A DNA stretch of 40,861 nucleotides from a virus. Lineage: Duplodnaviria > Heunggongvirae > Uroviricota > Caudoviricetes. The notes beneath the pieces were generated by a model, which was given only the letters and a program-made list of their open reading frames with translations, searched no databases and was not told where the DNA came from. Shown here piece after piece: positions 3,369-35,292 of this stretch. The stretch lies in IMG/VR virus record IMGVR_UViG_2541047778_000015; one strand, written 5' to 3'. Position numbers and translations under genes: made by a program. Numbering within the stretch: the stretch's first letter is position 1; every line of letters begins with the position of its first letter.

Positions 3369-3395
3369 CCCGCAAAATATTGCGGGCTTTTTTTT
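3369..3395 (+). terminator. Plus-strand intrinsic terminator (hairpin plus T8) overlapping the tailspike stop codon
   Basis: CCCGCAA-aata-TTGCGGG followed by TTTTTTTT on the plus strand; the minus-strand reading lacks a U-tract, so it does not terminate the tailspike transcript. Confidence 0.6.
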
Positions 3396-6300
3396 AACGT
3401 TCTTCCAGAGACTGAATCCGCTCTTTTATCTTATCCATTTCTCTGCGCTGCCATGCTGCCTCGATATAGAATAAGAGATCAGGTCTGACCCCCCATCTAG
3501 ATCCTGCTGGCGTTATTTCAACGCGCTCAATGATGTCTTCCATTACCATCACTGGATTATCATCCTCATCAACAATGATGCTCCCGTCATTATCAGTCAG
3601 CGGAATTTCCCTTTGGCCAGTAATGACGTCATCATATACTGCGGGATAATCGTCATAGCAAAGAAAGGCATAGCGGCATGTTGTGCTTTCTTCTTCCATG
3701 AGTCCGTGAGAAATAAGAACATCACGAAGTTGCTGCGCGATTACACCATGATGTATCCTCGCCCCTTCTTCCCCCTTTATAGCGACAGCGTTCAGCCATT
3801 TATAAGCGATATACCTGACGTCACCCCAGGCATCCAGCAATGCTTCGTCAGGAGAGACCGGCTCTGTCTTTAATGTTCCGTCACTGGTAACCACAGGATT
3901 GGAGCCAAGATAAACTGTCGAGAACCTGTTTCCCGGACCACCAAGAGCATTTACATTATCAAGATAAGGTTTAACATCTCCGTTCTCAAAAAGATGTTCG
4001 AGTGCGTTATATACCGCGCGACGTGGAGTACTGCTTCTGGAACCATGCAACGTTATCATTGCACCATCTGCTGAAGACGTTGTTTCACCGCCGCTAACGA
4101 TTAATCTCTGAGCGGTAACATCATCAGACGGTACTTTCTTCGCAATAATGGCGTAATTACCCTCAAGTTTGACTTCCGCGCGAACTTGTCCTGATGTACC
4201 TGCATGGACAGTCAGTGACTGGACGGCAACATCATCTGTGAAATCAACGGGTACAGGAACCGTCCTCACGCCTGACGTCGACATAAAAGTAGGAAGCGTT
4301 CTGTTAGGAGTGGCTCCGTAGACAAAATCCCTTGAAACAAATTCTTCCTGTTTAATTTTCACCCTGAAACAATACAAATCAGCCGGGTGACCATCGTGAA
4401 CATAAGGATATTTTCTGTTGTTATCCCCTATGCTCCATGGGTTTAGAAAGTCTTCCCCACCGAAAATGTAGTACAGCCAGTTGTCTTTGATACAAACTGA
4501 ACCAACACCAACCGCAGAGTTAACTATTCCGCCCTGATAAATCTGATCAGTAACATTAACCCACTCTACATTATCCAGACTCCACTCATTGACGTTAACT
4601 CTGGTCATAAATGTTCTTGGATAATTTCCTGCATAACGGTTATCAGGTTCTCCTCCTTCCCACTCACCAAATGCGCGCTCACTGCCAAAAATAATCAGCT
4701 CATCGCCAACTTTGGCAAAAGGAAGGTTTGAGTGATGAACATTATTTGGGAAGCGAAGAGAATTCCATGATGTACCTAAATCAGAGCTTCTGTGCAATGA
4801 ACTACCGGGTTGAGTACTTAATGTCCCCCTGGTCGTCAGATACAGAATGCCATCATAATATTTTACACATGGCTCAGATGCATTCGCCTCATATTCTGCA
4901 GGTATGCGTCTGCGAACAAAGCTACCAGGAGAACCGAAAGCATCAGAGAAATAGAGTATCCCAAGCTCGCGTGGACCAATATCACCATTATGGTAGCCAA
5001 CAGCAAAACTGTTATCGCTAATCGTCGCAAAACTGTGAATCTCAGTAACAGGAGTGCTTCCGTCAACAAAAGAAGGAATAGTTCCAAGACTGGTTTTTCT
5101 CCATGGTGACGAGTGAAATGATGTACCAAAACTCCAGTATCTACCCTCGTTATTCTGATCCACATCCTGGGTATTTTGCGTCGTAACTGTAAAAGTATTT
5201 TTATCAATAACAGTAGTCACCGTCATATTCCCGGTAACACCTGTAACACCAGAGTTTGAGAAGTTGACAAAATCACCAGCAAATAATCCGTGATCAGTAA
5301 TGCGAATATAAGCGACTTGCTGATTTGCTGCTTTCGTTATACCACCATAAACGCGAAGGCTGCGACTCATTGGGCGATCCCACAACTCTGCAACCTGCAG
5401 TTTATTTCCGCTCACGGTCCGCGTCTCAATTACAGCAAAAAGGCGATTTCTGACAACCCCCATACTCATGCAGTGATAGTTAACTGTGGGATAGTTTTCA
5501 TGTAAATCTGTAAGCCATTCCGGCGTTGTCCAGGTCTTCCCGTCATCTCCTGAGCGAACCCATGCAACATGGAGGTTATTTACACCATGGCGGTCTCCAG
5601 CCATAAAAGGCGCATAGATGACATTGTCATATACAAACGTTTTATCCTGCGTCCAGGCGTTGTACCACGGTGTATCTGTAATTTTAAATAACTCTCCCTG
5701 GATAAAATCTTCAGAAGCATAAAAAAGAGGCTGACCCGGTATTCTCTCAAATAAAAAACGAGCATTTTTAAATCGGCTGACATCCGGAAGAGTTGATACT
5801 TTAAAAGTAAGCCCTAATCCGTCAATTTTATAACCTGGAGATGAGGCTTCAAGGCACGCGCTTATTGCAGTGGAATCGTCATTTATACCATCACCAACAG
5901 CTCCAAAATCTTTGGGGCTAATAGCATCACGCATTTTATCCTGGAACGTTCGGTACACAGCCCCAGAACCATACTGAATAAACCAACCAAAACCACCAAC
6001 AACCCCGGCGATTGCAGCATCGACATAATTACGCATTGAGCGATTATTTACAGCGTCCTGTTCAAGTGATGGATCTGCAAGGTTAGAAATTTTGTTTTGC
6101 TTTGCATCGTAATATTTTGCAAGCAAAGATGGTTTCATCAATGCACGTCTGAACCACCCAAAACATTGCTGGATCAGCATCGTCAGGTAGTCAAAAGCAT
6201 CTTCATGCACTTCGGGGAAAAATTTTCCCTGATTGCGAAGGTCTGTCTCCTGCACTACATCAAGCACACGATCTATCGTAATTCGCCATCCAGCAGCAAG

Positions 6301-6513
6301 CGGCGACGGAAGAACAACAGAACCGCCACTATAAGTGCCCGCCCCAGTTACCGTATAACCGGTATCCAGTACTAGTTCTGTTACGTTACCGTTAAGGTCA
6401 GACACCTGAACAACCAGGTCGGATTTTTTGAAAATACGGAAGGTATACGGAAATGATGTCGTAACGCCGTTACCAGTGTATTCGTTGTGGTCAACTTCGG
6501 TTGAGACCGTCAT
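3394..6513 (-). CDS. Tailspike / tail fibre with predicted C-terminal intramolecular chaperone domain
   Basis: 1039 aa; N-terminus resembles the T7 gp17-type adaptor domain; two Asp-box-like motifs (SGDDGKTW, SSDLGTSW); C-terminal ~160 aa resemble the peptidase S74 chaperone domain, with S-x4-K at VVTSDGTLK. Confidence 0.8.
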   Translation of the reverse strand: MTVSTEVDHNEYTGNGVTTSFPYTFRIFKKSDLVVQVSDLNGNVTELVLDTGYTVTGAGTYSGGSVVLPSPLAAGWRITIDRVLDVVQETDLRNQGKFFPEVHEDAFDYLTMLIQQCFGWFRRALMKPSLLAKYYDAKQNKISNLADPSLEQDAVNNRSMRNYVDAAIAGVVGGFGWFIQYGSGAVYRTFQDKMRDAISPKDFGAVGDGINDDSTAISACLEASSPGYKIDGLGLTFKVSTLPDVSRFKNARFLFERIPGQPLFYASEDFIQGELFKITDTPWYNAWTQDKTFVYDNVIYAPFMAGDRHGVNNLHVAWVRSGDDGKTWTTPEWLTDLHENYPTVNYHCMSMGVVRNRLFAVIETRTVSGNKLQVAELWDRPMSRSLRVYGGITKAANQQVAYIRITDHGLFAGDFVNFSNSGVTGVTGNMTVTTVIDKNTFTVTTQNTQDVDQNNEGRYWSFGTSFHSSPWRKTSLGTIPSFVDGSTPVTEIHSFATISDNSFAVGYHNGDIGPRELGILYFSDAFGSPGSFVRRRIPAEYEANASEPCVKYYDGILYLTTRGTLSTQPGSSLHRSSDLGTSWNSLRFPNNVHHSNLPFAKVGDELIIFGSERAFGEWEGGEPDNRYAGNYPRTFMTRVNVNEWSLDNVEWVNVTDQIYQGGIVNSAVGVGSVCIKDNWLYYIFGGEDFLNPWSIGDNNRKYPYVHDGHPADLYCFRVKIKQEEFVSRDFVYGATPNRTLPTFMSTSGVRTVPVPVDFTDDVAVQSLTVHAGTSGQVRAEVKLEGNYAIIAKKVPSDDVTAQRLIVSGGETTSSADGAMITLHGSRSSTPRRAVYNALEHLFENGDVKPYLDNVNALGGPGNRFSTVYLGSNPVVTSDGTLKTEPVSPDEALLDAWGDVRYIAYKWLNAVAIKGEEGARIHHGVIAQQLRDVLISHGLMEEESTTCRYAFLCYDDYPAVYDDVITGQREIPLTDNDGSIIVDEDDNPVMVMEDIIERVEITPAGSRWGVRPDLLFYIEAAWQRREMDKIKERIQSLEER

Positions 6514-6616
6514 GTTAAATCTCCAGATAGTCGCAGCACCCGTTGCGCCGCATATCTGGTTATTCTATTACCTGAAAAACCACATATGGATAGAAAGACT
6601 GTGAATACGAATAGAT

Positions 6617-6633
6617 ATTACCTTTCGGGTAAT
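6617..6633. promoter_or_regulatory. Operator-like site ATTACC-tttcg-GGTAAT
   Basis: 17-bp palindrome of the recurring family; intergenic, between the tailspike start and the LexA box. Confidence 0.5.
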
Positions 6634-6669
6634 TTGCAAAACGTGCTGGATAGCAAACAAATTATTTGA

Positions 6670-6689
6670 TACTGTATAAATATACAGTT
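6670..6689. promoter_or_regulatory. LexA (SOS) box
   Basis: TACTGTATAAATATACAGTT: CTGT-N8-ACAG with an AT-rich spacer, close to the consensus TACTGTATATATATACAGTA; lies 20 bp upstream of the 6709 start and overlaps a TATAAAT -10-like hexamer. Confidence 0.7.
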
Positions 6690-6708
6690 ATTGCATGGAG
6701 AAGATAAG

Positions 6709-6966
6709 ATGCAGCAGTATCACTATCCACTGGAAGACGGATTTACCGAAAGGATTCACACGCCGGGAGGCGTCAGATCACTGGTGGAGGGATCGCACTT
6801 GATGAAATTACTCCGGGATCTCGATAAGGATGGATTTAATGTCGATGGCCCACTTGCCGAACTGACTGCACTGATTAACTACGTCACCAGCTCACAGATG
6901 TCTATGCAGGATCTGCAAACACATCTCGACTATTGTGCCGAACAATTACGAAAACAAACCACATAA
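6709..6966 (+). CDS. Small protein homologous to the shared antirepressor C-terminal module (candidate SOS-inducible antirepressor)
   Basis: ATG at 6709 with GGAG 8 nt upstream (ORF track used TTG at 6691); the 85-aa product aligns with the C-termini of the 8112 and 10849 genes. Confidence 0.55.
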   Translation: MQQYHYPLEDGFTERIHTPGGVRSLVEGSHLMKLLRDLDKDGFNVDGPLAELTALINYVTSSQMSMQDLQTHLDYCAEQLRKQTT

Positions 6967-6990
6967 AGAAAAGGCCGCTCTAGCGGCCTA
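6967..6990. terminator. Hairpin between convergent genes (bidirectional terminator candidate)
   Basis: GGCCGC-tcta-GCGGCC with an A-run upstream (U-run for the minus-strand transcript). Confidence 0.45.
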
Positions 6991-7716
6991 TCGTTTCGCT
7001 TTGTGCTCGTCCCAGCACGTTTTGCACCATGCCATTAAGCCGTCCGCATTTTGATTATTAGGGTAAAAGCTAGTTCGTTTTCTGCGGACATTACAAATTG
7101 GGCACCACTTCATATGGCGTGTATTCTTTGGGCCATCGAGACACCTTGCACACCACTTAGTCAATCCATCTGGATTTTTTGACGATTTCCTGAATTTTTC
7201 ATATGGAAGGTTTATTCTGCATCGCAAGCACTGCTTGCTACCACTTGAAACTCTGTTAGCTGATTCTTCTTTTGGCGGCGATACAGAAGGTATTCTTGCT
7301 GGCTCTGATACTGCCTGAGGTGCTTTTTTAGATGACTGAGACGATATGTCATCACCAGGGAATCTTCCATGATATGCCGGACGCGTTGACACTCCGGGTG
7401 GAAGCTCAGCTGTAAACGGCTTTGGCTGAATCAGTTGCCTCTCTTTTGCTAACTCCTGCTGTTTATAATATGTCTGGATTACCGCGCTATCATAAGCAGG
7501 AGGTACGGAAATATTAGGCGCATTATCTCCCGTTTTTTGAAACTGAGTGGAGGTGTGTTCTATCACCTGTGTACGATTAATCGTTATCTCCCCATCTTCA
7601 GTCTTTATCGTTTTGTTATGATTAACGACCGTACGATCAGAGATCTTAGTCTTGTTCTGGTTGATAACGTAAATAATCACCGCAACCACACCAACAACTA
7701 CCCAGAAAACTTCCAT
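6988..7716 (-). CDS. Membrane-anchored protein with tandem Cys-rich (zinc-ribbon-like) repeats, unknown function
   Basis: N-terminal TM helix (MEVFWVVVGVVAVIIYVI); C-terminal repeats SKNPDGLTKWCARC and NQNADGLMAWCKTC plus further CxxC pairs. Confidence 0.55.
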   Translation of the reverse strand: MEVFWVVVGVVAVIIYVINQNKTKISDRTVVNHNKTIKTEDGEITINRTQVIEHTSTQFQKTGDNAPNISVPPAYDSAVIQTYYKQQELAKERQLIQPKPFTAELPPGVSTRPAYHGRFPGDDISSQSSKKAPQAVSEPARIPSVSPPKEESANRVSSGSKQCLRCRINLPYEKFRKSSKNPDGLTKWCARCLDGPKNTRHMKWCPICNVRRKRTSFYPNNQNADGLMAWCKTCWDEHKAKR

Positions 7717-7735
7717 TGCCTTTCCTCACAATAAC

Positions 7736-7752
7736 ATTACCTTAAAGGTAAT
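7736..7752. promoter_or_regulatory. Operator-like site ATTACC-ttaaa-GGTAAT
   Basis: Perfect 6-bp arms; 20 bp upstream of the start of the 6988..7716 gene. Confidence 0.5.
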
Positions 7753-7800
7753 ATCTTGCTTTCAGGTGATCAAGCGTTAAACGCAATCAACCAAATACGG

Positions 7801-7845
7801 TTGATTTTAATATTTCTTCGCGTTTATCATTACCTTTGCGGTAAA
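7801..7845 (+). promoter_or_regulatory. Sigma70-like promoter with overlapping operator-like site
   Basis: TTGATT, 18-bp spacer, TATCAT, with ATTACC-tttgc-GGTAAA (7829..7845) overlapping the -10/+1 region. Confidence 0.5.
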
Positions 7846-7960
7846 TTTACATCGCACTCCTCTTGTGCCATAGTAATCGGGCACTGGCAAAATCCAGTGC
7901 CGGGATTGGTCTCCCGGATTACTACAGAGGCACATATGCCGCATAAGCGGTTTTTTTATG
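7838..7960 (+). ncRNA. Candidate structured small RNA or leader/attenuator upstream of the Bro-N antirepressor
   Basis: Outer helix AGTAATC/GATTACT encloses hairpins GGCACTGG-caaaat-CCAGTGCC and GGGA-ttggtc-TCCC; followed by GCCGC-ataa-GCGG plus T7. Confidence 0.4.
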
Positions 7961-8111
7961 TGTAAAGCGCACCTATTCTATGGTGGGCTGTGTGGGGGCA
8001 CCGAAAGGTGCGCCGGGTTCCTTTGTAGCCGGTAAGACCAACTCTGCACAGTTCACCACCATCTGATTGGTCTCAGCGGTGGTGATTAACCTAACTACAA
8101 AGGTGATCGCC

Positions 8112-8804
8112 ATGAATACCAAACCTTCCATCTTTTCCTTTGAGTCATCCTGCCAGATCCGTATGTTCATGATTGACGGAGAACCTTGGTTTGTCACCAA
8201 AGATGTGTGCAATGCTTTGAATATTGATGTTACACAAGCGAGAAAACTTGATAAAAAAGGCTGGAACAAAAAGGGGCTGTATTCAATACAGACCCCTGGT
8301 GGAATACAAGAACTATCCATCGTTTCAGAATCAGGTCTCTACATCCTTATTCTGCGTTGCAAAGAGGCAATGACTGAGGGAACGAGAGCATTCAGATTTC
8401 TTGAATGGGTTACAGGTGAGGTTCTTCCTCAGATCCGCCGCACCGGAAGTTACATTAAAAACTCGCTCCCGCAGGAAGAACGCATAAAGATGGTTGCCGA
8501 CCAGGTAGCCAACGCCACAGCATCAGCAGTGATGCAGGCAATGAAGATAGAGAACAAAACCTACAGTGCCCCACTGAAGCCCGGCTACCGCAGCCTGATT
8601 CATTCTCCGTCTGGTGTTCTCGGCCTGACGGAGAACTCATTGCTTATGAATCTGCTAAACCAGTTACAGGAAGACGGGCACGACGTATCGGGCGCGGCGG
8701 CGGAGCTGACCACCATGTTCTGCTACATCGTCGGTGTGAGCAAATGCCTGCGTGATATCCAGACCCACGCGGAGTACATCAACGACAAGGCAGGGTTCTT
8801 CTGA
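8112..8804 (+). CDS. Antirepressor with Bro-N/KilA-N-type N-domain and shared C-terminal module
   Basis: Start at MNTKPSIFSF (ATG 8112); the N-terminal segment IRMFMIDGEPWFVTKDVCNALNI is Bro-N-like; the last 77 aa are identical to the C-terminus of the 9911..10849 product. Confidence 0.7.
   Translation: MNTKPSIFSFESSCQIRMFMIDGEPWFVTKDVCNALNIDVTQARKLDKKGWNKKGLYSIQTPGGIQELSIVSESGLYILILRCKEAMTEGTRAFRFLEWVTGEVLPQIRRTGSYIKNSLPQEERIKMVADQVANATASAVMQAMKIENKTYSAPLKPGYRSLIHSPSGVLGLTENSLLMNLLNQLQEDGHDVSGAAAELTTMFCYIVGVSKCLRDIQTHAEYINDKAGFF
8571..8804 (+). repeat. Inverted-repeat copy A (codes the shared 77-aa C-terminal module)
   Basis: Reverse complement matches 9911..10144 with about a dozen single-base differences by hand alignment, all synonymous. 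Confidence 0.8.
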
Positions 8805-8841
8805 CGGGCGGTGGCACAGGGATGTGCCTTTAAAATAATCA

Positions 8842-8886
8842 TTGGCGATGTGATGTAGATTCGCGTAATATTACCTTACGGGTAAG
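8842..8886 (+). promoter_or_regulatory. Promoter-like hexamers with operator-like site ATTACC-ttacg-GGTAAG
   Basis: TTGGCG, ~17-18 bp spacer, TAATAT, then the 17-bp palindrome at 8870..8886; upstream of the 8945 gene. Confidence 0.45.
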
Positions 8887-8944
8887 AAAGCGTTTTTAAT
8901 CTTCCCTTCAAAACGCGTCCTGTAGCCAAACATGGGAGGACGAA

Positions 8945-9577
8945 ATGAAAACAAATACAACAAGAAAAGCGATGCCATACATTATCCCAGAAGCAGATTT
9001 CGACAGAAAACTGAACATGTCTGAGAAGAACACTAGTCACACCGAAAGCTACTTAGCGAAAGGTGTGGTTGATTTCGTTCTTCCGGGATTCACAACACCT
9101 TATGGTTATCGCCTTGTAAAATCTTGTAATGGCGATCATTACAGAATGATTACTACCAGCGATACTCCAGAAACGGTGTATGCGGTTAAGTTAATCTTTC
9201 GGGAAGATATCGTCGAAGCTAAAAGAACATGTACGCAGATCATGGTATGGCGTACGCCTAATGTTATTCATGACCGTGCTGTTCATGGTTTGCCTCAGAT
9301 TTTTTTTCAGTTCTTTCTAGAGCAATATGCGATCGTTGTATCTGATGAGCAACAAACAATCGATGGGAGAAGATTCTGGGAAAGAATGATTTCTTGGGCT
9401 ATAAACACCCCGGGATATAATGTATACGTTTCAGATGGCTCTGAAGAAGATAGACCTCTTAGCTTCATGACATCATGGGATGATTTCTATAGCCAGTGGG
9501 CTGATTTCTGTTGGGGCAGTGATAAAGATGTGCATACCCACAGACTACTGGTTATAAGCAAAGATAAACTGCATTAA
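8945..9577 (+). CDS. Hypothetical protein, accessory cargo
   Basis: 210-aa ORF with its own promoter-like region and downstream terminator; no family recognised. Confidence 0.55.
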   Translation: MKTNTTRKAMPYIIPEADFDRKLNMSEKNTSHTESYLAKGVVDFVLPGFTTPYGYRLVKSCNGDHYRMITTSDTPETVYAVKLIFREDIVEAKRTCTQIMVWRTPNVIHDRAVHGLPQIFFQFFLEQYAIVVSDEQQTIDGRRFWERMISWAINTPGYNVYVSDGSEEDRPLSFMTSWDDFYSQWADFCWGSDKDVHTHRLLVISKDKLH

Positions 9578-9581
9578 TAGA

Positions 9582-9603
9582 AGCCCGCAGCGCGGGCTTT
9601 TTT
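9582..9603 (+). terminator. Intrinsic terminator
   Basis: GCCCGC-agc-GCGGGC followed by TTTTTT. Confidence 0.65.
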
Positions 9604-9675
9604 GTGGACGAAACAAAAGTCAGTGCTACACTCATTGACGCCACATTGAGGTGGCTTATAGATGGAAATTTCACA

Positions 9676-9837
9676 ATGAAAAAAGCATTTGCTGCACTGT
9701 TCGTTTTGTTGTCTCTGGTAGCTTCAACTCAGGCCTTTGCCGGTCGTTGTCAGCACGACAGCGATACTGCCGCTGACGGCTCCCGCTGCGGTGGGCGTTC
9801 TGCGGATTCCCGCCCGGGCGGCGGTGGCATTCGTTAA
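9676..9837 (+). CDS. Small secreted Gly/Cys-containing peptide (candidate)
   Basis: MKKAFAALFVLLSLVASTQAFA signal peptide, then a ~31-aa Gly/Asp/Arg-rich body with two Cys; start is the ATG at 9676 inside the longer ORF-track frame. Confidence 0.4.
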   Translation: MKKAFAALFVLLSLVASTQAFAGRCQHDSDTAADGSRCGGRSADSRPGGGGIR

Positions 9838-9860
9838 AAACAAGGCCGCGAAAGCGGCCT
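9836..9860. terminator. Hairpin terminator serving the minus-strand antirepressor gene (possibly bidirectional)
   Basis: A-run, then AGGCCGC-gaaa-GCGGCCT; read on the minus strand the hairpin is followed by a U-run. Confidence 0.5.
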
Positions 9861-9910
9861 GTGACATGTCACGCTAGTTTCGTTTTGCACGTCCCTGTGC
9901 CGCCGTTCTG

Positions 9911-10144
9911 TCAGAAGAACCCTGCCTTGTCGTTGATGTATTCCGCGTGCGTCTGGATATCACGCAGGCATTTGCTCACACCAACGATGTAGCAGAACAT
10001 GGTGGTCAGCTCCGCCGCCGCGCCCGATACATCGTGCCCGTCTTCCTGTAACTGGTTCAGCAGATTCATCAGCAGTGAGTTCTCCGTCAGGCCGAGAACA
10101 CCCGACGGCGAATGAATCAGACTGCGGTAGCCTGGCTTCAATGG
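9911..10144 (-). repeat. Inverted-repeat copy B (codes the shared 77-aa C-terminal module)
   Basis: See copy A at 8571..8804. Confidence 0.8.
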
Positions 10145-10849
10145 ATAACCATAACATTTTGTCTGTGTTTTAATTGCCTCACGAAGCGCATCTAACATCT
10201 TGACTGCCACTTCATCATTCTCTGATGCAGATCCAGCAGGGAGATACTCCCCTTCAAGCGGAACCCGAGCAACAAGAGACAACGCTTCGGCAAATTGATC
10301 TTCACCAATTTCTTTGTACGAACAGCCAAAATGAGATTTCAGTGACGACCACATGGTGATCATCGCCTTAGCCTGTTTTTCTTTTGGCAGAGACTGACCG
10401 CGACTCATGACGAGTTGTTTAATGGCTTCCTGCTGTTCAGTTGTTATTTTACCCGGCAACGCCTTTTTAGCTTTGCGTGGGTTAACCACATGGCCTTTAG
10501 TCCAGTACTCGTAGAGCACATCGTCACACTCTTCCTGATACTGGATTACCTTGTCGCGGATTTCAGGGCGGACTTTGTTAGGGCTGATGCTGTTCAACCA
10601 AGCTGCCAATTTTCGTAAAGCCATACAAATCATGGCTTGCACCCCACCGGCAGAAGGTATGGTGATTTCCACCATACCCTTCGAGAAGCGTTGAGAAATC
10701 TTCTTATGTTGAGATTTCCAGTCTAGCCCCATTCCCTCAACGATAGGTTTCATTGGGGTATACGGTTCGCCGTTGTGATTGACAACATAAAGCTCTGCGC
10801 CGTGGAATGGCACGTTGATAGTAGATACTGCTGTTGCTATACTCGTCAT
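9911..10849 (-). CDS. Antirepressor with P22 Ant-type N-domain and shared C-terminal module
   Basis: N-terminus YVVNHNGEPYTPMKPIVEGMGLDWKSQHKKI resembles the P22-type antirepressor N-domain; last 77 aa identical to the 8112..8804 product; sits downstream of an Arc-like gene as in P22 immI. Confidence 0.7.
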   Translation of the reverse strand: MTSIATAVSTINVPFHGAELYVVNHNGEPYTPMKPIVEGMGLDWKSQHKKISQRFSKGMVEITIPSAGGVQAMICMALRKLAAWLNSISPNKVRPEIRDKVIQYQEECDDVLYEYWTKGHVVNPRKAKKALPGKITTEQQEAIKQLVMSRGQSLPKEKQAKAMITMWSSLKSHFGCSYKEIGEDQFAEALSLVARVPLEGEYLPAGSASENDEVAVKMLDALREAIKTQTKCYGYPLKPGYRSLIHSPSGVLGLTENSLLMNLLNQLQEDGHDVSGAAAELTTMFCYIVGVSKCLRDIQTHAEYINDKAGFF

Positions 10850-10898
10850 GTCGTTAATTCCTATACGTAGTTTTACGATACTGAAGCCCTGACGGTCT

Positions 10899-10912
10899 GG
10901 CCACCGTGGGGC
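10899..10912. promoter_or_regulatory. Mnt-operator-like near-palindrome (GGCCACCGTGGGGC)
   Basis: Contains CCACGGTGG on the opposite strand, the core I recall from the P22 mnt operator; second copy at 11104..11118. Confidence 0.4.
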
Positions 10913-10921
10913 TTCGCTGTT

Positions 10922-11089
10922 TTATGCCACGCTATTCTTCTCACCAGTGAGTCCATACACTTTCCTCAGCTGATAGATAATCTCTGTATTGAACTTTCGG
11001 CATTCTTTTTCGCCATTTCTTTCAATAGCTAACTTCACATCGTCCGGAAAACGAACTCGTCGTTGACACATCTCTTTTGCTTTTTGCAT
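10922..11089 (-). CDS. Arc-like ribbon-helix-helix repressor
   Basis: Start at MQKAKEM with AGGAG 7 nt upstream (ORF track used GTG at 11110); RVRFPDDVKLAIERNGEKECRKFNTEIIYQL parallels the P22 Arc RHH region. Confidence 0.6.
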   Translation of the reverse strand: MQKAKEMCQRRVRFPDDVKLAIERNGEKECRKFNTEIIYQLRKVYGLTGEKNSVA

Positions 11090-11103
11090 TTCATATCTCC
11101 TTA

Positions 11104-11118
11104 GCCCCACCGTGGGGC
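11104..11118. promoter_or_regulatory. Mnt-operator-like near-palindrome (GCCCCACCGTGGGGC) in the arc/ant promoter region
   Basis: Perfect outer arms GCCCCA/TGGGGC; lies between the divergent mnt-like and arc-like genes; related CACACCGTG and CACACGGTG elements at 11130..11163. Confidence 0.45.
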
Positions 11119-11209
11119 AAAATAATTGTCACACCGTGCGTCATTGATGTCAAGCACACGGTGAGGCATACTTCAATCATTGCAAGTAACTCAATATTTG
11201 GTGAAGAAC

Positions 11210-11641
11210 ATGAGCAGAGAAGATCCACAACTAAGGATCAGACTTCCCGTCGAAGTAAAAGAAAAAATAGAAATTTCTGCAAAAGCCAATAAGCGATCAA
11301 TGAACGCTGAAATAGTACAACGTCTTGACACCAGCTTTCTGAAAGATATTCATGAAGATGACGTAATTTCTGCTTATGAAGCAAAAATCATTGCAAACAA
11401 TGCACGACATGAAATATCAAATATTATTTTCAAAAGAACCTTTAATGAAATTAATAAGAAAATAACACTTGGACATACAAGTTTTTATATAAACCTTAAT
11501 GACCTTGAACTGGAATCACTTGCAGATAATGATTACCAGATCATCTTTGAAAAAACATTTAATAGGCTCAATGAACTAGGTTACATCATCTGTGAAAACT
11601 CATGGGATGCAGATGGTTTTGGAATTGAAATACCTGAATAG
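11210..11641 (+). CDS. Mnt-like ribbon-helix-helix repressor with C-terminal extension
   Basis: MSREDPQLRIRLPVEVKEKIEISAKANKRSMNAEIVQRL parallels the P22 Mnt N-terminus as recalled; 143 aa, longer than the Mnt I recall. Confidence 0.65.
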   Translation: MSREDPQLRIRLPVEVKEKIEISAKANKRSMNAEIVQRLDTSFLKDIHEDDVISAYEAKIIANNARHEISNIIFKRTFNEINKKITLGHTSFYINLNDLELESLADNDYQIIFEKTFNRLNELGYIICENSWDADGFGIEIPE

Positions 11642-11731
11642 GAAGAACAAAAGGCGTGTACATATTACACGTCTTTAATACAATTGAAAAACGCCACATT
11701 ACTGATGTATGTTACAACAAGGAGCGATATT

Positions 11732-12295
11732 TTGAAAACCATATCTATATTAAAGGTTGCATTAGGCGTCGCTATTATTTTGACTCTCTCAATATTGTTT
11801 TATTTTTACCACAAACAAACTGCTATTGCTCTTGATAGTCACGCGGCAAACTCATTTTTCTCAGAGTACATAGTGCCGCTATCAGGAAGCGGTATAACAA
11901 ATAAATATACTGACTATGACATCAAATATGGAATTGATGATGGGGAGACTATTGTATTACATGTAATCATTAAAAACCTAATGACAGTAAATAAAAATAC
12001 AGACTTCAACGATAAAAATACAATACATCACAACAACAGCAAAACATTAATTTCTTATAGTAGCAACATCTATACGGATAAATACCTAAAATACATATCA
12101 GAAGATACAATAAAAGAAACCCGCGAAAAGTTAAAAAACATATATTGTGCATCCGGCAGTTTTCACAAATTATCGCCGCAAGAGCGTTTATTCTACGAAG
12201 CAAGAAAACAACGTAAGTCAATAATATTACATTATTATGCTGATTCAGGGGAGACACTCATATTTAATATTGGGGTTTCCCCTGAATCATGCTAA
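11732..12295 (+). CDS. AT-rich accessory gene, membrane-anchored protein of unknown function
   Basis: TTG start with AGGAG 8 nt upstream gives MKTISILKVALGVAIILTLSILFYFY (signal anchor); AT-rich by eye compared with the flanking genes; ORF track begins at 11684. Confidence 0.5.
   Translation: MKTISILKVALGVAIILTLSILFYFYHKQTAIALDSHAANSFFSEYIVPLSGSGITNKYTDYDIKYGIDDGETIVLHVIIKNLMTVNKNTDFNDKNTIHHNNSKTLISYSSNIYTDKYLKYISEDTIKETREKLKNIYCASGSFHKLSPQERLFYEARKQRKSIILHYYADSGETLIFNIGVSPESC
12241..12289. repeat. Perfect 12-bp inverted repeat with 25-nt spacer at a convergent gene junction
   Basis: TGATTCAGGGGA ... TCCCCTGAATCA. Confidence 0.5.
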
Positions 12296-12306
12296 AGGTG
12301 TTTAAC

Positions 12307-15300
12307 TCACCGCATCACCGGATCCACTTGGTTTATTAGTGGCGCAATCCAGAACAGGTTATTGCCGGGTATCAGGGTTCGGACATTATGCACAATACGA
12401 TCACCGGCATCACCATTCAACACTCCTGAGGTCACATCAATGATGCTATCCGCAAGACCAAATGACGGTCCGAATAGAGATCCTACGAATCCACGACTGG
12501 CATACCTGGACTGTGTGCCAGTGCCAAATAAAGCCCCCAGCCCAACAGCACCACCAGTCGCCTTTTCAGCCATGTTGTTATATTCCATCAATGGCCCAAG
12601 AATACCGGATCTATCTATACCCTCAAGCACCAGCTTCTCTGGTGACCAGTCAACATTTTTCCCTTTCGATGCTTCTTTAAGCGCATAGACCAGTGAGCCA
12701 AGAGCAATCTGAAATGCAGTGCCATAATAAAATTGCGCAGTTCCTTCCTGTAACCCACCAAGTAGCGCACGGTTGTATGAAGCCGTTGTGAATGATTTAA
12801 ACTGAAATATCGTTCGCCCCATTGGAGTACTCGCCCATAAAGGTGTGTCACCAATACCGGGGGTGATGATAGTGTTATTAACGTCTTTCAGAACCGCTGA
12901 CTGGAATACTCCGGCAACGTACTGATCGTCCCATTTATCAAAGTTACCAATGTGCCATCCATCAATTACCTCACCATGTTTCTCGAACTCACTGCGAATA
13001 CGCGCAGCCATATTGTCGTTGATACCGAGTTTTGCCATGCGACGTGCAGAAAACGCACCAGACAAAATACCGTCTGACGTGAGCATTCCGTTCATGGATT
13101 TGTTTATGTCATTAAATCGATCCATGAGTGTCAGCTTGCCGAAGGCATCAGTAATTCGCTCCATTCCTGCTTCGACTGCTGTTGTCCTGGAAGAACTGTC
13201 AACAAGATCACCAATTGCACGAGAACGTGAATGTAGTACAGTTTCCAATCCAATCCCCATCTTCAACATCTCTTCTTTGCTGGCCTTAAATGCCGGTGAT
13301 TGGGATATCTGAGAAGCATAGCCTTTCATGGAGTTACGGAAACCATTAACCATAACCCCTCTGGCCAGATCTGGAATAGCTGATACTGTCATTCCACCGA
13401 GTTTGGTCGTGAAGTTCACATCCCGCAGAAAAGCGCCAGCACGAACAAAAAACGAAGACGGGTCATCAGGCATACCATATGTACCAACAAGACGATCGCG
13501 TAATGCTGTTATGTCTCTGAGATCATTTGCTCTTGATTTTGAAAGTCTGGACTGTTCTTTCCGTAATTCCTTTTCGTACTTTCGCATTAATGAATCGAGT
13601 TTACCCTGAGGAACAACTTCACCATTGCTCTCATAACGTGCTTTCAGATTTGCCACACTTTCGTCATATTTCGCCTTTATTTTTTCAGGCACTTCCCGTA
13701 ACAGACTGTCATATTCGTCCTCAATTAATTGCAGACGCTCTGTCATAGTTCGTTTGCCAAATGTTCTCGTCAACTCAATTTCTGCTGCCGCTTCACGGAT
13801 ATGACGTTGTAGAACGTAATTCACATCACTTTCGAGATAATCCCTGATAAGACTATCAGGCACATTTAATGTTCTTTCTTTCGTACTACCTGCGGCTTTT
13901 ACAGAAAATACGCTGACAAAATCCTGTGGAACCTTAGCACCAGTAATTTTATTAATTACGATATCCGCTGCAATTTCAGCATCCTCAGGATCCAGTGTTT
14001 TATTGCCTCTCGACCACCAGTCAACCAAAATACGTCGAAATTTATCGCGTTCACTGATTATTTTTCCAACTTTATATATACGTGGGAAATAGCTTGCCTG
14101 GCCTAATGCTTTCAGTTCTTCATCTGGCGGCAATAAACCAAGCTTTTGCATTTCAACCTTCACCCGATTTAATACAGTTCGCATCGCCTGCGCCGTTTCC
14201 TGAACAACAGGATTAGCATGCACATCACCGCTTCGCATAGCATTCCCAACCTGCTGACGAAATGAATCAAAACTCATGTCACCACCATCAGCTTTATACT
14301 TTGCGTATGCCTGTTTATTTCCGACAACAACAGCAGCTTCTTCACGCTGCCATCCACGTGTACGGGTTTCTACAGCTACCGGTGTTTCAATCCCCCTTTC
14401 ATTTCCTTTAAGGGTGAAATTATTTTCGGCTAACTCCAGCGTTGTTTTTCGCACTGTCTTGGACGGAGACTCCATTAACCTTGTCAAAGGAGTAAGATAG
14501 CTCCCTGCTTTCCATGCAGCCTTTCCAACCACCCCACCGGAAACAGGGGTTAAATCATCCAGAGTCGCTGTATCAATTTTCATAGCACCAACACTACCAC
14601 CATCAGAAAGCGAAGCGGCAGCCCTGTCAGTCGCTGATGTAATGCTCATATTATCAAGAGCATCAGCAACCTCACGCGTGGCTGCAGCCCGGACGGATGG
14701 CGAAAGCGCAACACCAGCACTGGCAAACACGCCGCTCATCATCGCACCCGCTGCAATGTGAGCGGCACTTTCACCCCATGAGCGTGTTATTTGCTGATTA
14801 TTCAGCACAACCTCGCTTAATGCTGTACCGGCTGCACCAATCGCAATCTGTGAGCCAATACGCGCCAGTGCCCCTCCTTGAGCACCGGGGATAAACATTG
14901 ACGCAACAGTAACCGGATCCATTCCCGCAGCAATACTGGCAAGGGTTCCAACTACGCCAGCATCAGACAATAAACGTCTGTCTTCATTTTCATCATCTAT
15001 CTGCTGCTTAATCCACGCCGTTTCCTCTGGCGATCGGGAATCTGCAAATTTCGCCCCCCAGTATTCATAACCGTGCAACTCATTTTTATCAGCATATGGG
15101 TTATAACCTTCGACCGGTTCAAACTGTCTGGCTGGTCGGAAAAAACCAGCCAGAATATTGTTCTGTCGCATTGCAGCCCCCCATACGGAAGGCTCCGGTG
15201 GCAATGGCTCAGGATTAGCCCCTTCCGGAAGGGCAACATCAAACCCAGTTTGTTCCGGCAAAACATTACCTGACGGGATCAGTCCGTTATTAAGATCTTC

Positions 15301-15321
15301 AGCTTGTGCATAAACTGGCAT
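12307..15321 (-). CDS. Large internal virion / ejection protein (podovirus-type)
   Basis: 1004 aa, Gly/Ala-rich hydrophobic stretches and long charged helical regions; last of three consecutive large virion genes. Confidence 0.6.
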   Translation of the reverse strand: MPVYAQAEDLNNGLIPSGNVLPEQTGFDVALPEGANPEPLPPEPSVWGAAMRQNNILAGFFRPARQFEPVEGYNPYADKNELHGYEYWGAKFADSRSPEETAWIKQQIDDENEDRRLLSDAGVVGTLASIAAGMDPVTVASMFIPGAQGGALARIGSQIAIGAAGTALSEVVLNNQQITRSWGESAAHIAAGAMMSGVFASAGVALSPSVRAAATREVADALDNMSITSATDRAAASLSDGGSVGAMKIDTATLDDLTPVSGGVVGKAAWKAGSYLTPLTRLMESPSKTVRKTTLELAENNFTLKGNERGIETPVAVETRTRGWQREEAAVVVGNKQAYAKYKADGGDMSFDSFRQQVGNAMRSGDVHANPVVQETAQAMRTVLNRVKVEMQKLGLLPPDEELKALGQASYFPRIYKVGKIISERDKFRRILVDWWSRGNKTLDPEDAEIAADIVINKITGAKVPQDFVSVFSVKAAGSTKERTLNVPDSLIRDYLESDVNYVLQRHIREAAAEIELTRTFGKRTMTERLQLIEDEYDSLLREVPEKIKAKYDESVANLKARYESNGEVVPQGKLDSLMRKYEKELRKEQSRLSKSRANDLRDITALRDRLVGTYGMPDDPSSFFVRAGAFLRDVNFTTKLGGMTVSAIPDLARGVMVNGFRNSMKGYASQISQSPAFKASKEEMLKMGIGLETVLHSRSRAIGDLVDSSSRTTAVEAGMERITDAFGKLTLMDRFNDINKSMNGMLTSDGILSGAFSARRMAKLGINDNMAARIRSEFEKHGEVIDGWHIGNFDKWDDQYVAGVFQSAVLKDVNNTIITPGIGDTPLWASTPMGRTIFQFKSFTTASYNRALLGGLQEGTAQFYYGTAFQIALGSLVYALKEASKGKNVDWSPEKLVLEGIDRSGILGPLMEYNNMAEKATGGAVGLGALFGTGTQSRYASRGFVGSLFGPSFGLADSIIDVTSGVLNGDAGDRIVHNVRTLIPGNNLFWIAPLINQVDPVMR

Positions 15322-27017: not shown

Positions 27018-27034
27018 ATTACCTTTTAGGTAAG
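27018..27034. promoter_or_regulatory. Operator-like site ATTACC-tttta-GGTAAG
   Basis: TTGACA hexamer at 26997..27002 immediately upstream. Confidence 0.45.
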
Positions 27035-28007: not shown

Positions 28008-28097
28008 CACCGTGACATATCACAAACAGCCAGCCTATGAGCTGGCTTTGTTTTATCCTCATCAGAGGATATCAACAACATTATCCCCTCAAGCGGA

Positions 28098-30199: not shown

Positions 30200-30284
30200 A
30201 ATACCATGCAAAATAAAGCCGCCATAGTTGGCGGCAGTATTCAAAATCCATCAAATTCATCATGCATAATCTACTCGTGACATG

Positions 30285-30632
30285 TCACACTATTAATTTC
30301 GTTTCATGCCAGCCTTTAGTCACCCAGCATTGCGAGTCACCATTACACGGGCATGAATTAACTGGAACTCTCTCGCCGCACTTACCGCAACGTTTTCTGC
30401 TGATCGATTTTATACGCCCGCGCACGCGTGCATCATCCTGGCGGATCAGTAACGCGATGTATTCGCTCATTTCATACGGCGCACGACCAGGGCGACGGGC
30501 GGCACAGTTACGCTCCAGCATTTCCTGCTCCTGCTTATCCAGCACCAGTTCAATTTTGCGCTCACCGGCGGCGGACTGCCGAGCGCGCTGCGCGGCTTTG
30601 CGTTCTGCGGGGGATTTAGCCACGAATCGCAC
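30285..30632 (-). CDS. Zinc-ribbon protein, candidate regulator
   Basis: C-terminal CGKCGERVPVNSCPCNG; basic N-terminal region; last gene before the terminase promoter region. Confidence 0.45.
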   Translation of the reverse strand: MRFVAKSPAERKAAQRARQSAAGERKIELVLDKQEQEMLERNCAARRPGRAPYEMSEYIALLIRQDDARVRGRIKSISRKRCGKCGERVPVNSCPCNGDSQCWVTKGWHETKLIV

Positions 30633-34707: not shown

Positions 34708-35292
34708 ATGAAAAGTATCCAGGACGTCCGCAGGCAAAATCTCAACGACTTGATCGACCGTGAATTCAATGGTGTTCAGACGCGGATGGCAGAAAAACTT
34801 GGAACTCAGGCAAATCTGGTAAACCGCTGGGCTCTTGGCAAGAAGGTTATCGGCGACCAGGTTGCGCGAAAAATTGAAGCTGCCGCCAATAAACCCCGTA
34901 ACTGGCTTGATATCGATCGCTCGCTTTCTCAGGAAGGTTTTCAGCCTGTCGGCCCAAGCGACATTGGTCAGCTGGCGGCTCACAACCTGGAACGCTGGAT
35001 GAGCGAAAGCCGCGACCTTTCAACACAGGGAAAACTTCACCGCGCATCCGGCGTCGCCCAGGTGACAATCAGCCGCCTGTTAAACAATGAGGTCAGCGTT
35101 TCCATTTCCACCCTGGAGAATGTTGCATCCGCATTCGGGCGTCACGGCTATGAATTACTGATTCACCCGCACGACCCTGCGACTATCAACTATGACCGCT
35201 CGCGCTACGCATTGTTACCCGAAACCGAGAAAGCAAAGATCGAAAGTTACATTGAATTTGTCATCAACCAGAACGAAAAAAACAAACAATAA
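34708..35292 (+). CDS. Prophage repressor with two HTH-like regions and no S24 autocleavage domain
   Basis: 194 aa; HTH-like segments near residues 24-46 and 110-145; no Ala-Gly / Ser-Lys peptidase region seen; divergent from cro. Confidence 0.65.
   Translation: MKSIQDVRRQNLNDLIDREFNGVQTRMAEKLGTQANLVNRWALGKKVIGDQVARKIEAAANKPRNWLDIDRSLSQEGFQPVGPSDIGQLAAHNLERWMSESRDLSTQGKLHRASGVAQVTISRLLNNEVSVSISTLENVASAFGRHGYELLIHPHDPATINYDRSRYALLPETEKAKIESYIEFVINQNEKNKQ

Follow-up and report, generated by a model that had tools for sequence, protein, structure and literature searches.

Positions 8805-9910 of the virus record IMGVR_UViG_2541047778_000015 hold a putative promoter, a gene for a 210-residue protein, a terminator, a gene for a 53-residue peptide, a hairpin and a palindrome, all set between the inverted 3' ends (the "arms") of two antirepressor genes. 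The whole stretch of 40,861 nucleotides is called the window here and reads as an epsilon15/phiV10-like (Uetakevirus-like) E. coli prophage. The phage records nearest to it over positions 6500-12400 are TL-2011b (82% covered, 96% identity), followed by phiV10 and its relatives. The segment is a module-exchange hotspot, because the same promoter/operator and terminator bracket nine different cassettes in 88 related loci. Our preferred reading, with a probability of about 0.6, is that it constitutes a repressor-controlled accessory-gene ("moron") slot in the prophage backbone and not mobile cargo defined by the arms. The order of elements is Bro-N antirepressor gene, promoter with its operator, one exchangeable cassette, terminator, peptide gene, terminator of the minus strand and palindrome. 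Variable accessory slots are well known from temperate phages, and nothing here is surprising in kind. We found no description of the particular wiring and cassette families in the searchable literature.

Nine cassettes in one slot

The comparison covers 88 loci, made up of 80 IMG/VR loci and several complete genomes, which were mapped against segments of the window. The IMG/VR loci encode an identical 53-residue peptide and are the best 80 of 274 relatives, hence chosen for high identity. All analysable loci share one order, in which the antirepressor 3' end corresponding to the left arm is followed by the promoter/operator, a variable stretch of 0.63-1.18 kb, the terminator and the peptide gene. 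Clustering of the variable stretches gave nine groups. The largest (21 loci) encodes a 59-residue protein and a YafO-family toxin; the 210-residue protein of the window comes next with 15 loci, and a DUF4760 protein follows with 12. Three cassettes occur in 9 loci each and encode, respectively, a 69-residue protein with a 288-residue membrane protein, a 55-residue protein with one of ~190 residues, and a 108-residue protein with a second YafO-like protein. The others comprise a pair of 72 and 125 residues (6 loci), a 113-residue protein with a DUF2335 protein (5 loci) and two small membrane proteins (2 loci). In Pfam, YafO_toxin matches one cassette and, below the cut-off, a second; DUF4760 matches a third and DUF2335 a fourth. 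TL-2011b has a YafO-type toxin pair at the position of the 210-residue protein, between the same two arms.

Homology between the cassette types stops just past the operator (8885) and restarts at the terminator hairpin (9581-9598). This intrinsic terminator closes the cassette on the plus strand at 9582-9604 and is the right-hand homology boundary common to all cassette types. It has a 10-bp stem followed by a U-run and folds with -16.7 kcal/mol (z -3.55), in line with the strong terminator that an earlier note on this DNA, made from the sequence alone, had placed after the 210-residue gene. On the left-hand side, the promoter of the window is replaced at the same place in other loci by an alternative, TTGCAG-17-TACTAT. 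Neither promoter variant is tied to a cassette type, and recombination at the operator is therefore indicated. Cassettes would be swapped by homologous recombination in the flanks, using the arm, promoter and operator on the left and the terminator and peptide gene on the right.

The earlier note had proposed that the inverted arms mark a hotspot of module exchange and had suggested looking for alternative cargo in related prophages. Alternative cargo is what the 88 loci contain: nine unrelated cassettes occupy the position of the 210-residue gene, and it is not the case that the same cargo is present everywhere. That the arms mark or drive the exchange, on the other hand, finds no support. 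A second, inverted arm is present in only 22 of the 88 loci, where it comes from a P22-type ant-arc-mnt module or from a second Bro-N-type gene, and the cassette type varies independently of it. What makes the slot exchangeable is therefore something other than the arms. The same observations bear on the idea that the segment is an autonomous mobile element (an insertion sequence, a miniature inverted-repeat transposable element or transposon-like cargo) with terminal inverted repeats. A 270-nt inverted repeat around a 1.1-kb segment does resemble such an element, but the repeats belong in frame to the coding sequence of two functional antirepressor genes, whose 3' ends they form, the segment contains no transposase or recombinase, a single arm accompanies the same slot in most relatives, and the variable unit is smaller than the repeat-bounded one. 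We consider an autonomous element extremely improbable.

The slot resembles moron or accessory-gene hotspots in that a short gene unit with its own terminator and, as predicted here, its own promoter lies between conserved backbone genes, and in that unrelated cassettes occupy one position in related phages. Variable regions between conserved phage genes have been exploited in accessory-gene screens (e.g. PMC12373910). Unlike in morons, the promoter/operator and the terminator are part of the conserved frame, so that only the 5' untranslated region (UTR) and the coding part are swapped, and the slot is nested between two antirepressor modules. Classical morons are expressed in the lysogen, whereas for this cassette the repressor operator at the promoter predicts silence there. 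The slot is common in E. coli, with sharp boundaries that run from operator to terminator. Among 5426 complete E. coli genomes, 533 match the segment, ST131 and K1 lineages among them, and only 92 carry the 210-residue cassette. Searches of PADLOC-DB v2 gave no match for the 210-residue protein or the peptide, and none for ten proteins from other cassettes except Cas8b at chance level (E 0.009). Variable slots in temperate phages are a proven source of defence and counter-defence genes, and nine compact cassettes that match no defence-database model are candidates to test.

Of the several elements that the earlier note counted as cargo, only the 210-residue gene varies; the peptide gene, the hairpin and the palindrome are conserved backbone. 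The peptide gene (9676-9837, plus strand) encodes a member of a conserved family, PHROG 14503 (E 2.3e-40), with 57 relatives across Enterobacterales, and its product is 100% identical in the 80 IMG/VR loci kept. It begins with a putative signal peptide, MKKAFAALFVLLSLVASTQAFA, followed by a mature part, GRCQHDSDTAADGSRCGGRSADSRPGGGGIR, with one Cys pair. By inspection the signal peptide divides into MKK, AFAALFVLLSLVA and STQAFA-G, that is, an n-region, an h-region and an AxA-type end. The N-terminal third of the peptide varies among relatives yet stays hydrophobic, and the mature part is near-invariant (C-Q-H-D-S-D-T-A-A-D-G-S-R-C-G-G-R-S-A-D-S-R-P-G-G). Exported peptides with a single disulfide typically show such a pattern, and the product is putatively secreted or anchored. 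The description of a Gly/Cys-rich peptide with a signal peptide was thus right in that the open reading frame (ORF) is real, conserved and Gly-rich, and needs correcting in that there are only two Cys residues. A resemblance to the Excalibur-like Ca-binding motif was dropped, being without Pfam support.

The hairpin at 9843-9860, which was located by a scan and by folding, consists of a 7-bp stem followed by TGTTTTTAAC on the minus strand. The orientation of the T-run implies that it ends the convergent minus-strand transcript, at the end of the ant/late operon, and not the peptide gene; the terminator proposed earlier is there, on the other strand from the peptide gene it seemed to serve. In phiV10 the equivalent hairpin carries the annotation of a minus-strand terminator, and in epsilon15 that of a rho-independent one. 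It is conserved in related loci, and in 77 of the 88 it is followed by the palindrome. The homology of the relatives breaks right after the palindrome, into at least 7 different right-hand sequences.

The perfect 12-bp palindrome, GTGACATGTCAC, is found at 9861-9872 as had been noted. Further copies lie at 30277-30288 (exact) and 28012-28023 (one mismatch, GTGACATATCAC), giving three copies in the window against 0.06 expected. Each of the three lies at an operon end and precedes an intrinsic terminator by 1-45 nt in the direction of transcription. In Salmonella phage epsilon15, three exact palindromes are found at equivalent places (2142, 19517 and 39612), each again at such a distance before an intrinsic terminator. 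Since it recurs at other operon ends and at the equivalent places in epsilon15, the palindrome belongs to the genus backbone and not to the cargo, and GTGACATGTCAC can be described from its distribution as a conserved terminator-associated operon-end element of Uetakevirus. Two other identifications were tried. The "boundary sequences" of CUS-3 are segments of 100-480 bp and unrelated to it, and CRP, LexA and similar sites, considered by inspection for the palindrome and the promoters, do not fit in spacing or sequence.

Putative repressor operators at the cassette promoter and along the prophage

The cassette promoter was read by inspection as a putative sigma-70 promoter at 8842-8871 on the plus strand, with the -35 hexamer TTGGCG at 8842-8847, an 18-nt spacer and the -10 hexamer TAATAT at 8866-8871. 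The site TTACCTTACGGGTAA at 8871-8885, of the type ATTACC-N5-GGTAA(T), abuts the -10 hexamer and +1. Both the promoter and the operator-like site that the earlier note had reported are thus present at 8842-8885. The window contains 15 copies of the motif TTACC-N5-GGTAA, 11 of them exact, against 0.49 expected, and none of 100 shuffled sequences reached 15. The accessory region that includes the slot is flanked by the tailspike gene (3394-6513, minus strand) and the gene of a 1004-residue virion protein (12307-15321, minus strand), and all four transcription units of this region start with such a site (6618, 7737, 7830 and 8871). Upstream of the cassette the operator is found in 88 of 88 loci and in all nine types, with 76 exact copies and 12 with one mismatch.

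The presumed binder of the cassette operator is the prophage repressor, a 194-residue protein encoded at 34708-35292 on the plus strand, and operator sites lie on both sides of its gene. It is 42% identical to the epsilon15 repressor gp38. In the RefSeq record of epsilon15, ATTACC-N5-GGTAAT is annotated as "protein_bind: repressor" at equivalent places, namely upstream of the small terminase gene, before gp3, in the gap between gp19 and the tail fibre gene, beside the repressor gene and in the early region. In a related Uetakevirus, overexpression of the repressor blocked lytic transcription and overexpression of the Bro-N antirepressor reduced lysogeny (PMC9782041). On the basis of the motif distribution, the sites flanking the repressor gene, the epsilon15 annotation and these overexpression results, we read 8871-8885 as a putative repressor operator at the -10 hexamer of the cassette promoter.

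Further sites of the operator type are spread over the prophage, at 27019, 30166/30184, 32289, 32351, 34253, 34590, 34638, 35350 and 35412. They extend beyond the neighbourhood of the repressor gene, and the small terminase gene also has operator sites in front of it. This scatter suggests genome-wide silencing by one repressor.

In the repressor, Pfam places an HTH_3 domain at residues 106-147 and, below the cut-off, a weaker match to the helix-turn-helix-like YdaS_toxin at residues 21-61. No match to a peptidase domain was found in Pfam. A repressor of this composition suggests induction through antirepressors rather than through RecA-mediated cleavage, which fits with the presence of two antirepressor genes. 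In a lysogen, the repressor would sit on the operator and keep the cassette silent. Upon the action of an antirepressor, or upon infection of a non-immune cell, the cassette would be transcribed, and it may also be reached by read-through from the antirepressor gene upstream. The operator on every cassette, together with two different immI circuits, leads to testable predictions on the timing of expression.

Two antirepressor genes and an invertible segment

Two antirepressor genes, one of Bro-N type and the other a P22-type ant, converge here, and their in-frame 3' ends are the arms. The Bro-N gene (8112-8804, plus strand) encodes 230 residues and is recognized by Pfam (Bro-N, E 1.8e-13) and by the anti-repressor families of PHROG; its last 270 nt (8536-8805) form the left arm. 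The right arm (9910-10179) is the 3' end of ant (9911-10849, minus strand), which encodes 312 residues and matches P22_AR_N in Pfam (E 5.9e-45). The two arms, of 270 nt each, are 90% complementary and separated by 1104 nt. The inverted repeat runs 19 nt further into both 3' UTRs (8809-8827 and 9887-9905), where a hairpin common to both arms, GGCACAgggaTGTGCC (8806-8827), lacks a proper U-run and is kept at the start of all nine cassette types. The same 77-residue C-terminus is encoded by both arms. All 12 differences among the 234 aligned nucleotides are synonymous, so the earlier description of two protein-identical copies around about 1.1 kb holds, and strong purifying selection acts on the domain.

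The leaders of the two genes differ. That of the Bro-N gene (7868-8063, plus strand) matches two Rfam antisense-RNA elements of P1-type immI control, isrK (74.7 bits, gathering score 50) and C4 (78.6 bits, gathering score 45); a match to c4-a1b1 (39.9 bits) stays under its gathering score. Opposite the 5' end of ant lies the antisense RNA sar (10851-10918, plus strand; 44.8 bits in Rfam, gathering score 43). It adjoins arc (10922-11110, minus strand) and mnt (11180-11641, plus strand), both of which were assigned from Arc-like matches in Pfam and PHROG. As judged from these matches, sar, arc, mnt and ant make up a P22-type immI module, and a P1-type and a P22-type immI module stand side by side and convergent in one prophage. 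The Rfam placement of C4/isrK as opposed to sar thus identifies the arms as a C-terminal domain common to P1-like and P22-like control circuits. With the P22-type module (mnt-arc-sar-ant) beyond the palindrome, the identical 77-residue tail of ant and Bro-N gives rise to the 270-bp repeat.

The right-hand flank resembles immI of P22 in having a P22_AR_N ant with a sar RNA and arc- and mnt-like genes, and the left-hand flank resembles the c4-icd-ant immI of P1 and P7 in having an antirepressor gene behind a C4 antisense-RNA leader. In contrast to both models, the two types occur here together and converging in an epsilon15-type podovirus, and the C4-controlled gene encodes a Bro-N protein and not P1 Ant. 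The identical C-terminal domain of the two antirepressors is another difference, as is its stand-alone occurrence in a 91-residue protein. The cassette itself is without counterpart in the immI regions of P22 or P1.

This 91-residue protein (6691-6966, plus strand) consists of the antirepressor C-terminal domain (PHROG 450) and is 85% identical to gp19 of epsilon15. Its gene has its own operator at 6618. Possible roles for the protein are that of a minimal antirepressor and that of a modulator acting on the two larger ones.

The repeat permits inversion of the segment, which is found in nature in both orientations. In the closed genome of SCU-387, the region corresponding to window positions 8571-10144 is reversed at 97.1% identity, with flanks that are collinear with the window on one side (6400-6966) and on the other (9887-10600 and 10834-12400). 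The cassette of SCU-387 consequently lies downstream of the P22-type ant and not of the Bro-N gene. In the genome of 07_3636, the entire 6 kb has the same order and orientation as in the window. When the exact inverted isomer of the window was used as a query against E. coli genomes, none covered it to at least 80%, because the N-termini of the outer antirepressors differ; SCU-387 was the best match. The flip, which would proceed by homologous recombination across the repeat, would turn the 1.1-kb segment around and change the antirepressor gene that lies upstream of the cassette, with no change in any protein.

Could the arms be a programmed invertible switch that regulates the cargo or the antirepressors by phase variation, in the manner of the G segment of Mu or the C segment of P1? 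Both orientations are found in natural closed genomes, and on the flip depends whether the cassette reads in the same direction as the C4-controlled Bro-N gene or as the Arc/Mnt/sar-controlled ant. As in the Mu and P1 segments, inverted repeats lie at the ends of coding sequences. Those segments have the invertases Gin and Cin, whereas neither Pfam nor PHROG revealed a recombinase or invertase domain in the nine ORFs scanned between the tailspike and virion protein genes (6691-12295). The repeats here are long (270 bp), diverged (90%) and coding, unlike short crossover sites. Moreover, the flipped segment includes the promoter and operator, and the proteins encoded by the arms are identical, so that neither product nor promoter is changed, in contrast to Mu and P1, and about three quarters of the related loci are without a second arm. 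A programmed switch is in our view very unlikely. With no recombinase among the nearby ORFs scanned, a promoter that travels with its gene and identical products from the two arms, inversion is probably occasional homologous recombination rather than a switch. Both the mobile-element and the invertase readings of the arms were rejected, there being no recombinase in the scanned ORFs and the arms being coding sequence.

The 210-residue protein and the role of the cassettes

The gene of the 210-residue protein (8945-9577, plus strand) has a GGAGG ribosome-binding site. The protein had been described as being of no recognizable family; it has indeed no match in Pfam, NCBIfam or PADLOC, but it belongs to an unnamed family, PHROG 1349 (function unknown; E 2.5e-113). 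In Enterobacterales it has 63 close homologues at 37-99% identity, nearly all of 199-237 residues (typically ~210), and clustering at 50% leaves 845 representatives of the wider family. When named relatives were sought with a profile, only the labels "hypothetical" and "phage protein" came up, and we found no paper that mentions the accessions of the protein or PHROG 1349. Among 51 diverse relatives, Pfam detected only isolated fusions (MqsA N-terminal domain, weak SAD/SRA, DUF5397). In one distant relative (P0148), an MqsA-antitoxin zinc-ribbon N-terminal domain (E 3.4e-20) is fused to a domain of the 210-residue type, and in another the N-terminal domain is weakly SAD/SRA-like. With no Pfam model and no name for the family, an assigned function would annotate many genomes.

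The AlphaFold2 model, calculated from an alignment of 36 sequences, has a pLDDT of 81 and a pTM of 0.78. Its matches in BFVD are uncharacterized phage proteins (TM 0.63-0.72) and several "NAT_SF" proteins. The most conserved stretch of the family, SDxxQTxxGRRFW (SDEQQTIDGRRFW), is modelled at the β4-loop-α3 position, where GNATs (Gcn5-related N-acetyltransferases) bind the pyrophosphate of coenzyme A (CoA). The invariant polar residues N29, D134, T138, R143, D164 and R200 cluster around β4-α3-β5 in the model. The conserved loop at the cofactor-binding β4-α3 position is a feature that the model shares with the GNAT superfamily. With low confidence, we consider it most likely that the protein is a divergent GNAT-type acyl-CoA-dependent acyltransferase acting alone. 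GNATs known from phages and toxins include AcrVA5 and the toxins KacT and TacT.

The family moves as a solitary gene among podovirus, siphovirus and P1-like elements and bacterial chromosomes. A homologue is solitary in a siphovirus-like prophage of Serratia, again beside a P22_AR_N ant and an Arc gene; another is solitary in a P1-like element, between tail genes and a sit-like gene; and a third stands alone in the Xenorhabdus chromosome, between ppc and metF. Its solitary occurrence in these three settings indicates that the protein acts without a dedicated partner. A toxin-antitoxin reading of the gene was rejected, as it is a single gene and no partner is common to the three annotated neighbourhoods. 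Unlike in GNAT toxin-antitoxin modules, no ribbon-helix-helix or DUF1778 antitoxin partner was present in the neighbourhoods examined. The most distant homologue has, at both of its places, a gene of ~205 residues immediately downstream. Other cassettes of the slot resemble gene pairs.

Several findings weigh against the reading developed here, and some of them favour a protein that is not an enzyme and acts by binding or inhibition, perhaps as a decoy or regulator, with a superficial resemblance to GNATs. Foldseek gave no significant match in the PDB (best E 0.018, TM ~0.3), although GNAT entries dominate the list. No GNAT model of Pfam matches any of the 51 diverse family members, and sequence searches of the PDB with two profiles of the family yielded nothing useful. 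The motif-A position reads Q-T-x-x-G-x-x or T-x-x-G-x-R in SDEQQTIDGRRFW and so deviates from the canonical Q/R-x-x-G-x-G/A. Two helices (107-128) interrupt the canonical GNAT topology in the model, and an N-terminal extension of ~50 residues is a further difference from the superfamily. The fold assignment is thus a remote one. A non-enzyme is nevertheless somewhat doubtful, in view of the NAT_SF proteins among the BFVD matches and of the clustering of the six invariant polar residues, which is as expected for an active site. The other findings on this side concern the slot itself. The binding of the repressor rests on the distribution of the motif and on the annotation of another record, that of epsilon15. 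Two metagenome or draft contigs (L051 and L032) have the same flip as SCU-387, and both end inside an arm, so misassembly is possible for each. Some orientation differences are flips of a larger unit that is bounded by the two antirepressor leaders and not by the arms (ST131-type L004 versus L033, and L062 versus L075). Finally, the chromosomal homologue in Xenorhabdus fits a host-beneficial or defence role better than an early function of the phage.

This last point leads to the question of what the cassettes do. The cassettes, including the 210-residue gene, may be genes for lysogen-protective defence, abortive infection or superinfection exclusion that act against other phages. Expression from the prophage would then be leaky, or would occur when the antirepressor of an invading phage titrates the repressor. 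In keeping with this, the other occupants look like toxins or membrane effectors (YafO-type pairs, DUF4760, DUF2335, small transmembrane proteins), and the 210-residue family moves as a solitary gene and is found alone in the Xenorhabdus chromosome. The slot also lies in the region where P22-like phages carry immI and sieA. Against it stand the lack of a match of any cassette to a PADLOC model and the repressor-type operator that abuts the -10 hexamer of every cassette promoter, which predicts silence in the lysogen. We regard protection of the lysogen as possible but on balance unlikely. The operator on every cassette argues for expression on derepression, and in the repressor-controlled slot that we favour, the 210-residue protein might modify a target in the host or in a rival phage early after derepression, which we put forward with low confidence. 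Anti-defence or host takeover is accordingly ranked as somewhat more likely than lysogen defence, also with low confidence, and the protein is a reasonable candidate for a gene of phage-host conflict.

A more far-reaching version of this reading is speculative, and we give it rather little weight. At least nine conflict cassettes of one or two genes each, on only when the repressor is lifted, could make up a reservoir in the slot. PHROG 1349 could comprise new GNAT-like effectors that work alone, whether as enzymes of anti-defence or host takeover or as a new single-gene defence, and recombination across the shared antirepressor tail could rewire cassettes between the C4-RNA and the Arc/Mnt/sar circuits. 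Separately, GTGACATGTCAC could be an undescribed, genus-wide control element associated with terminators.

Other genes in and beside the accessory region were noted as well. Downstream of mnt, a 203-residue protein (11684-12295, plus strand; PHROG 8033) has a weak TIR-like (ThsB) match in PADLOC (E 0.006), which is at chance level when taken alone; its gene occupies the position of sieA in P22. A second variable slot lies between the gp19-like gene and the antirepressor leader. In the window it holds the gene of a 242-residue membrane protein (6988-7716, minus strand; PHROG 6762) with two zinc-ribbon-like motifs and the operator at 7737 in front, and in other genomes (L003, L005 and L007) it holds a YafO-family toxin pair or is empty. 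The tailspike (3394-6513, minus strand) is of the endosialidase type, its homologues in K1 strains being annotated with the endosialidase catalytic β-propeller domain; the prophage would therefore target K1-capsulated E. coli. Other types of tailspike are present in relatives with the same accessory region.

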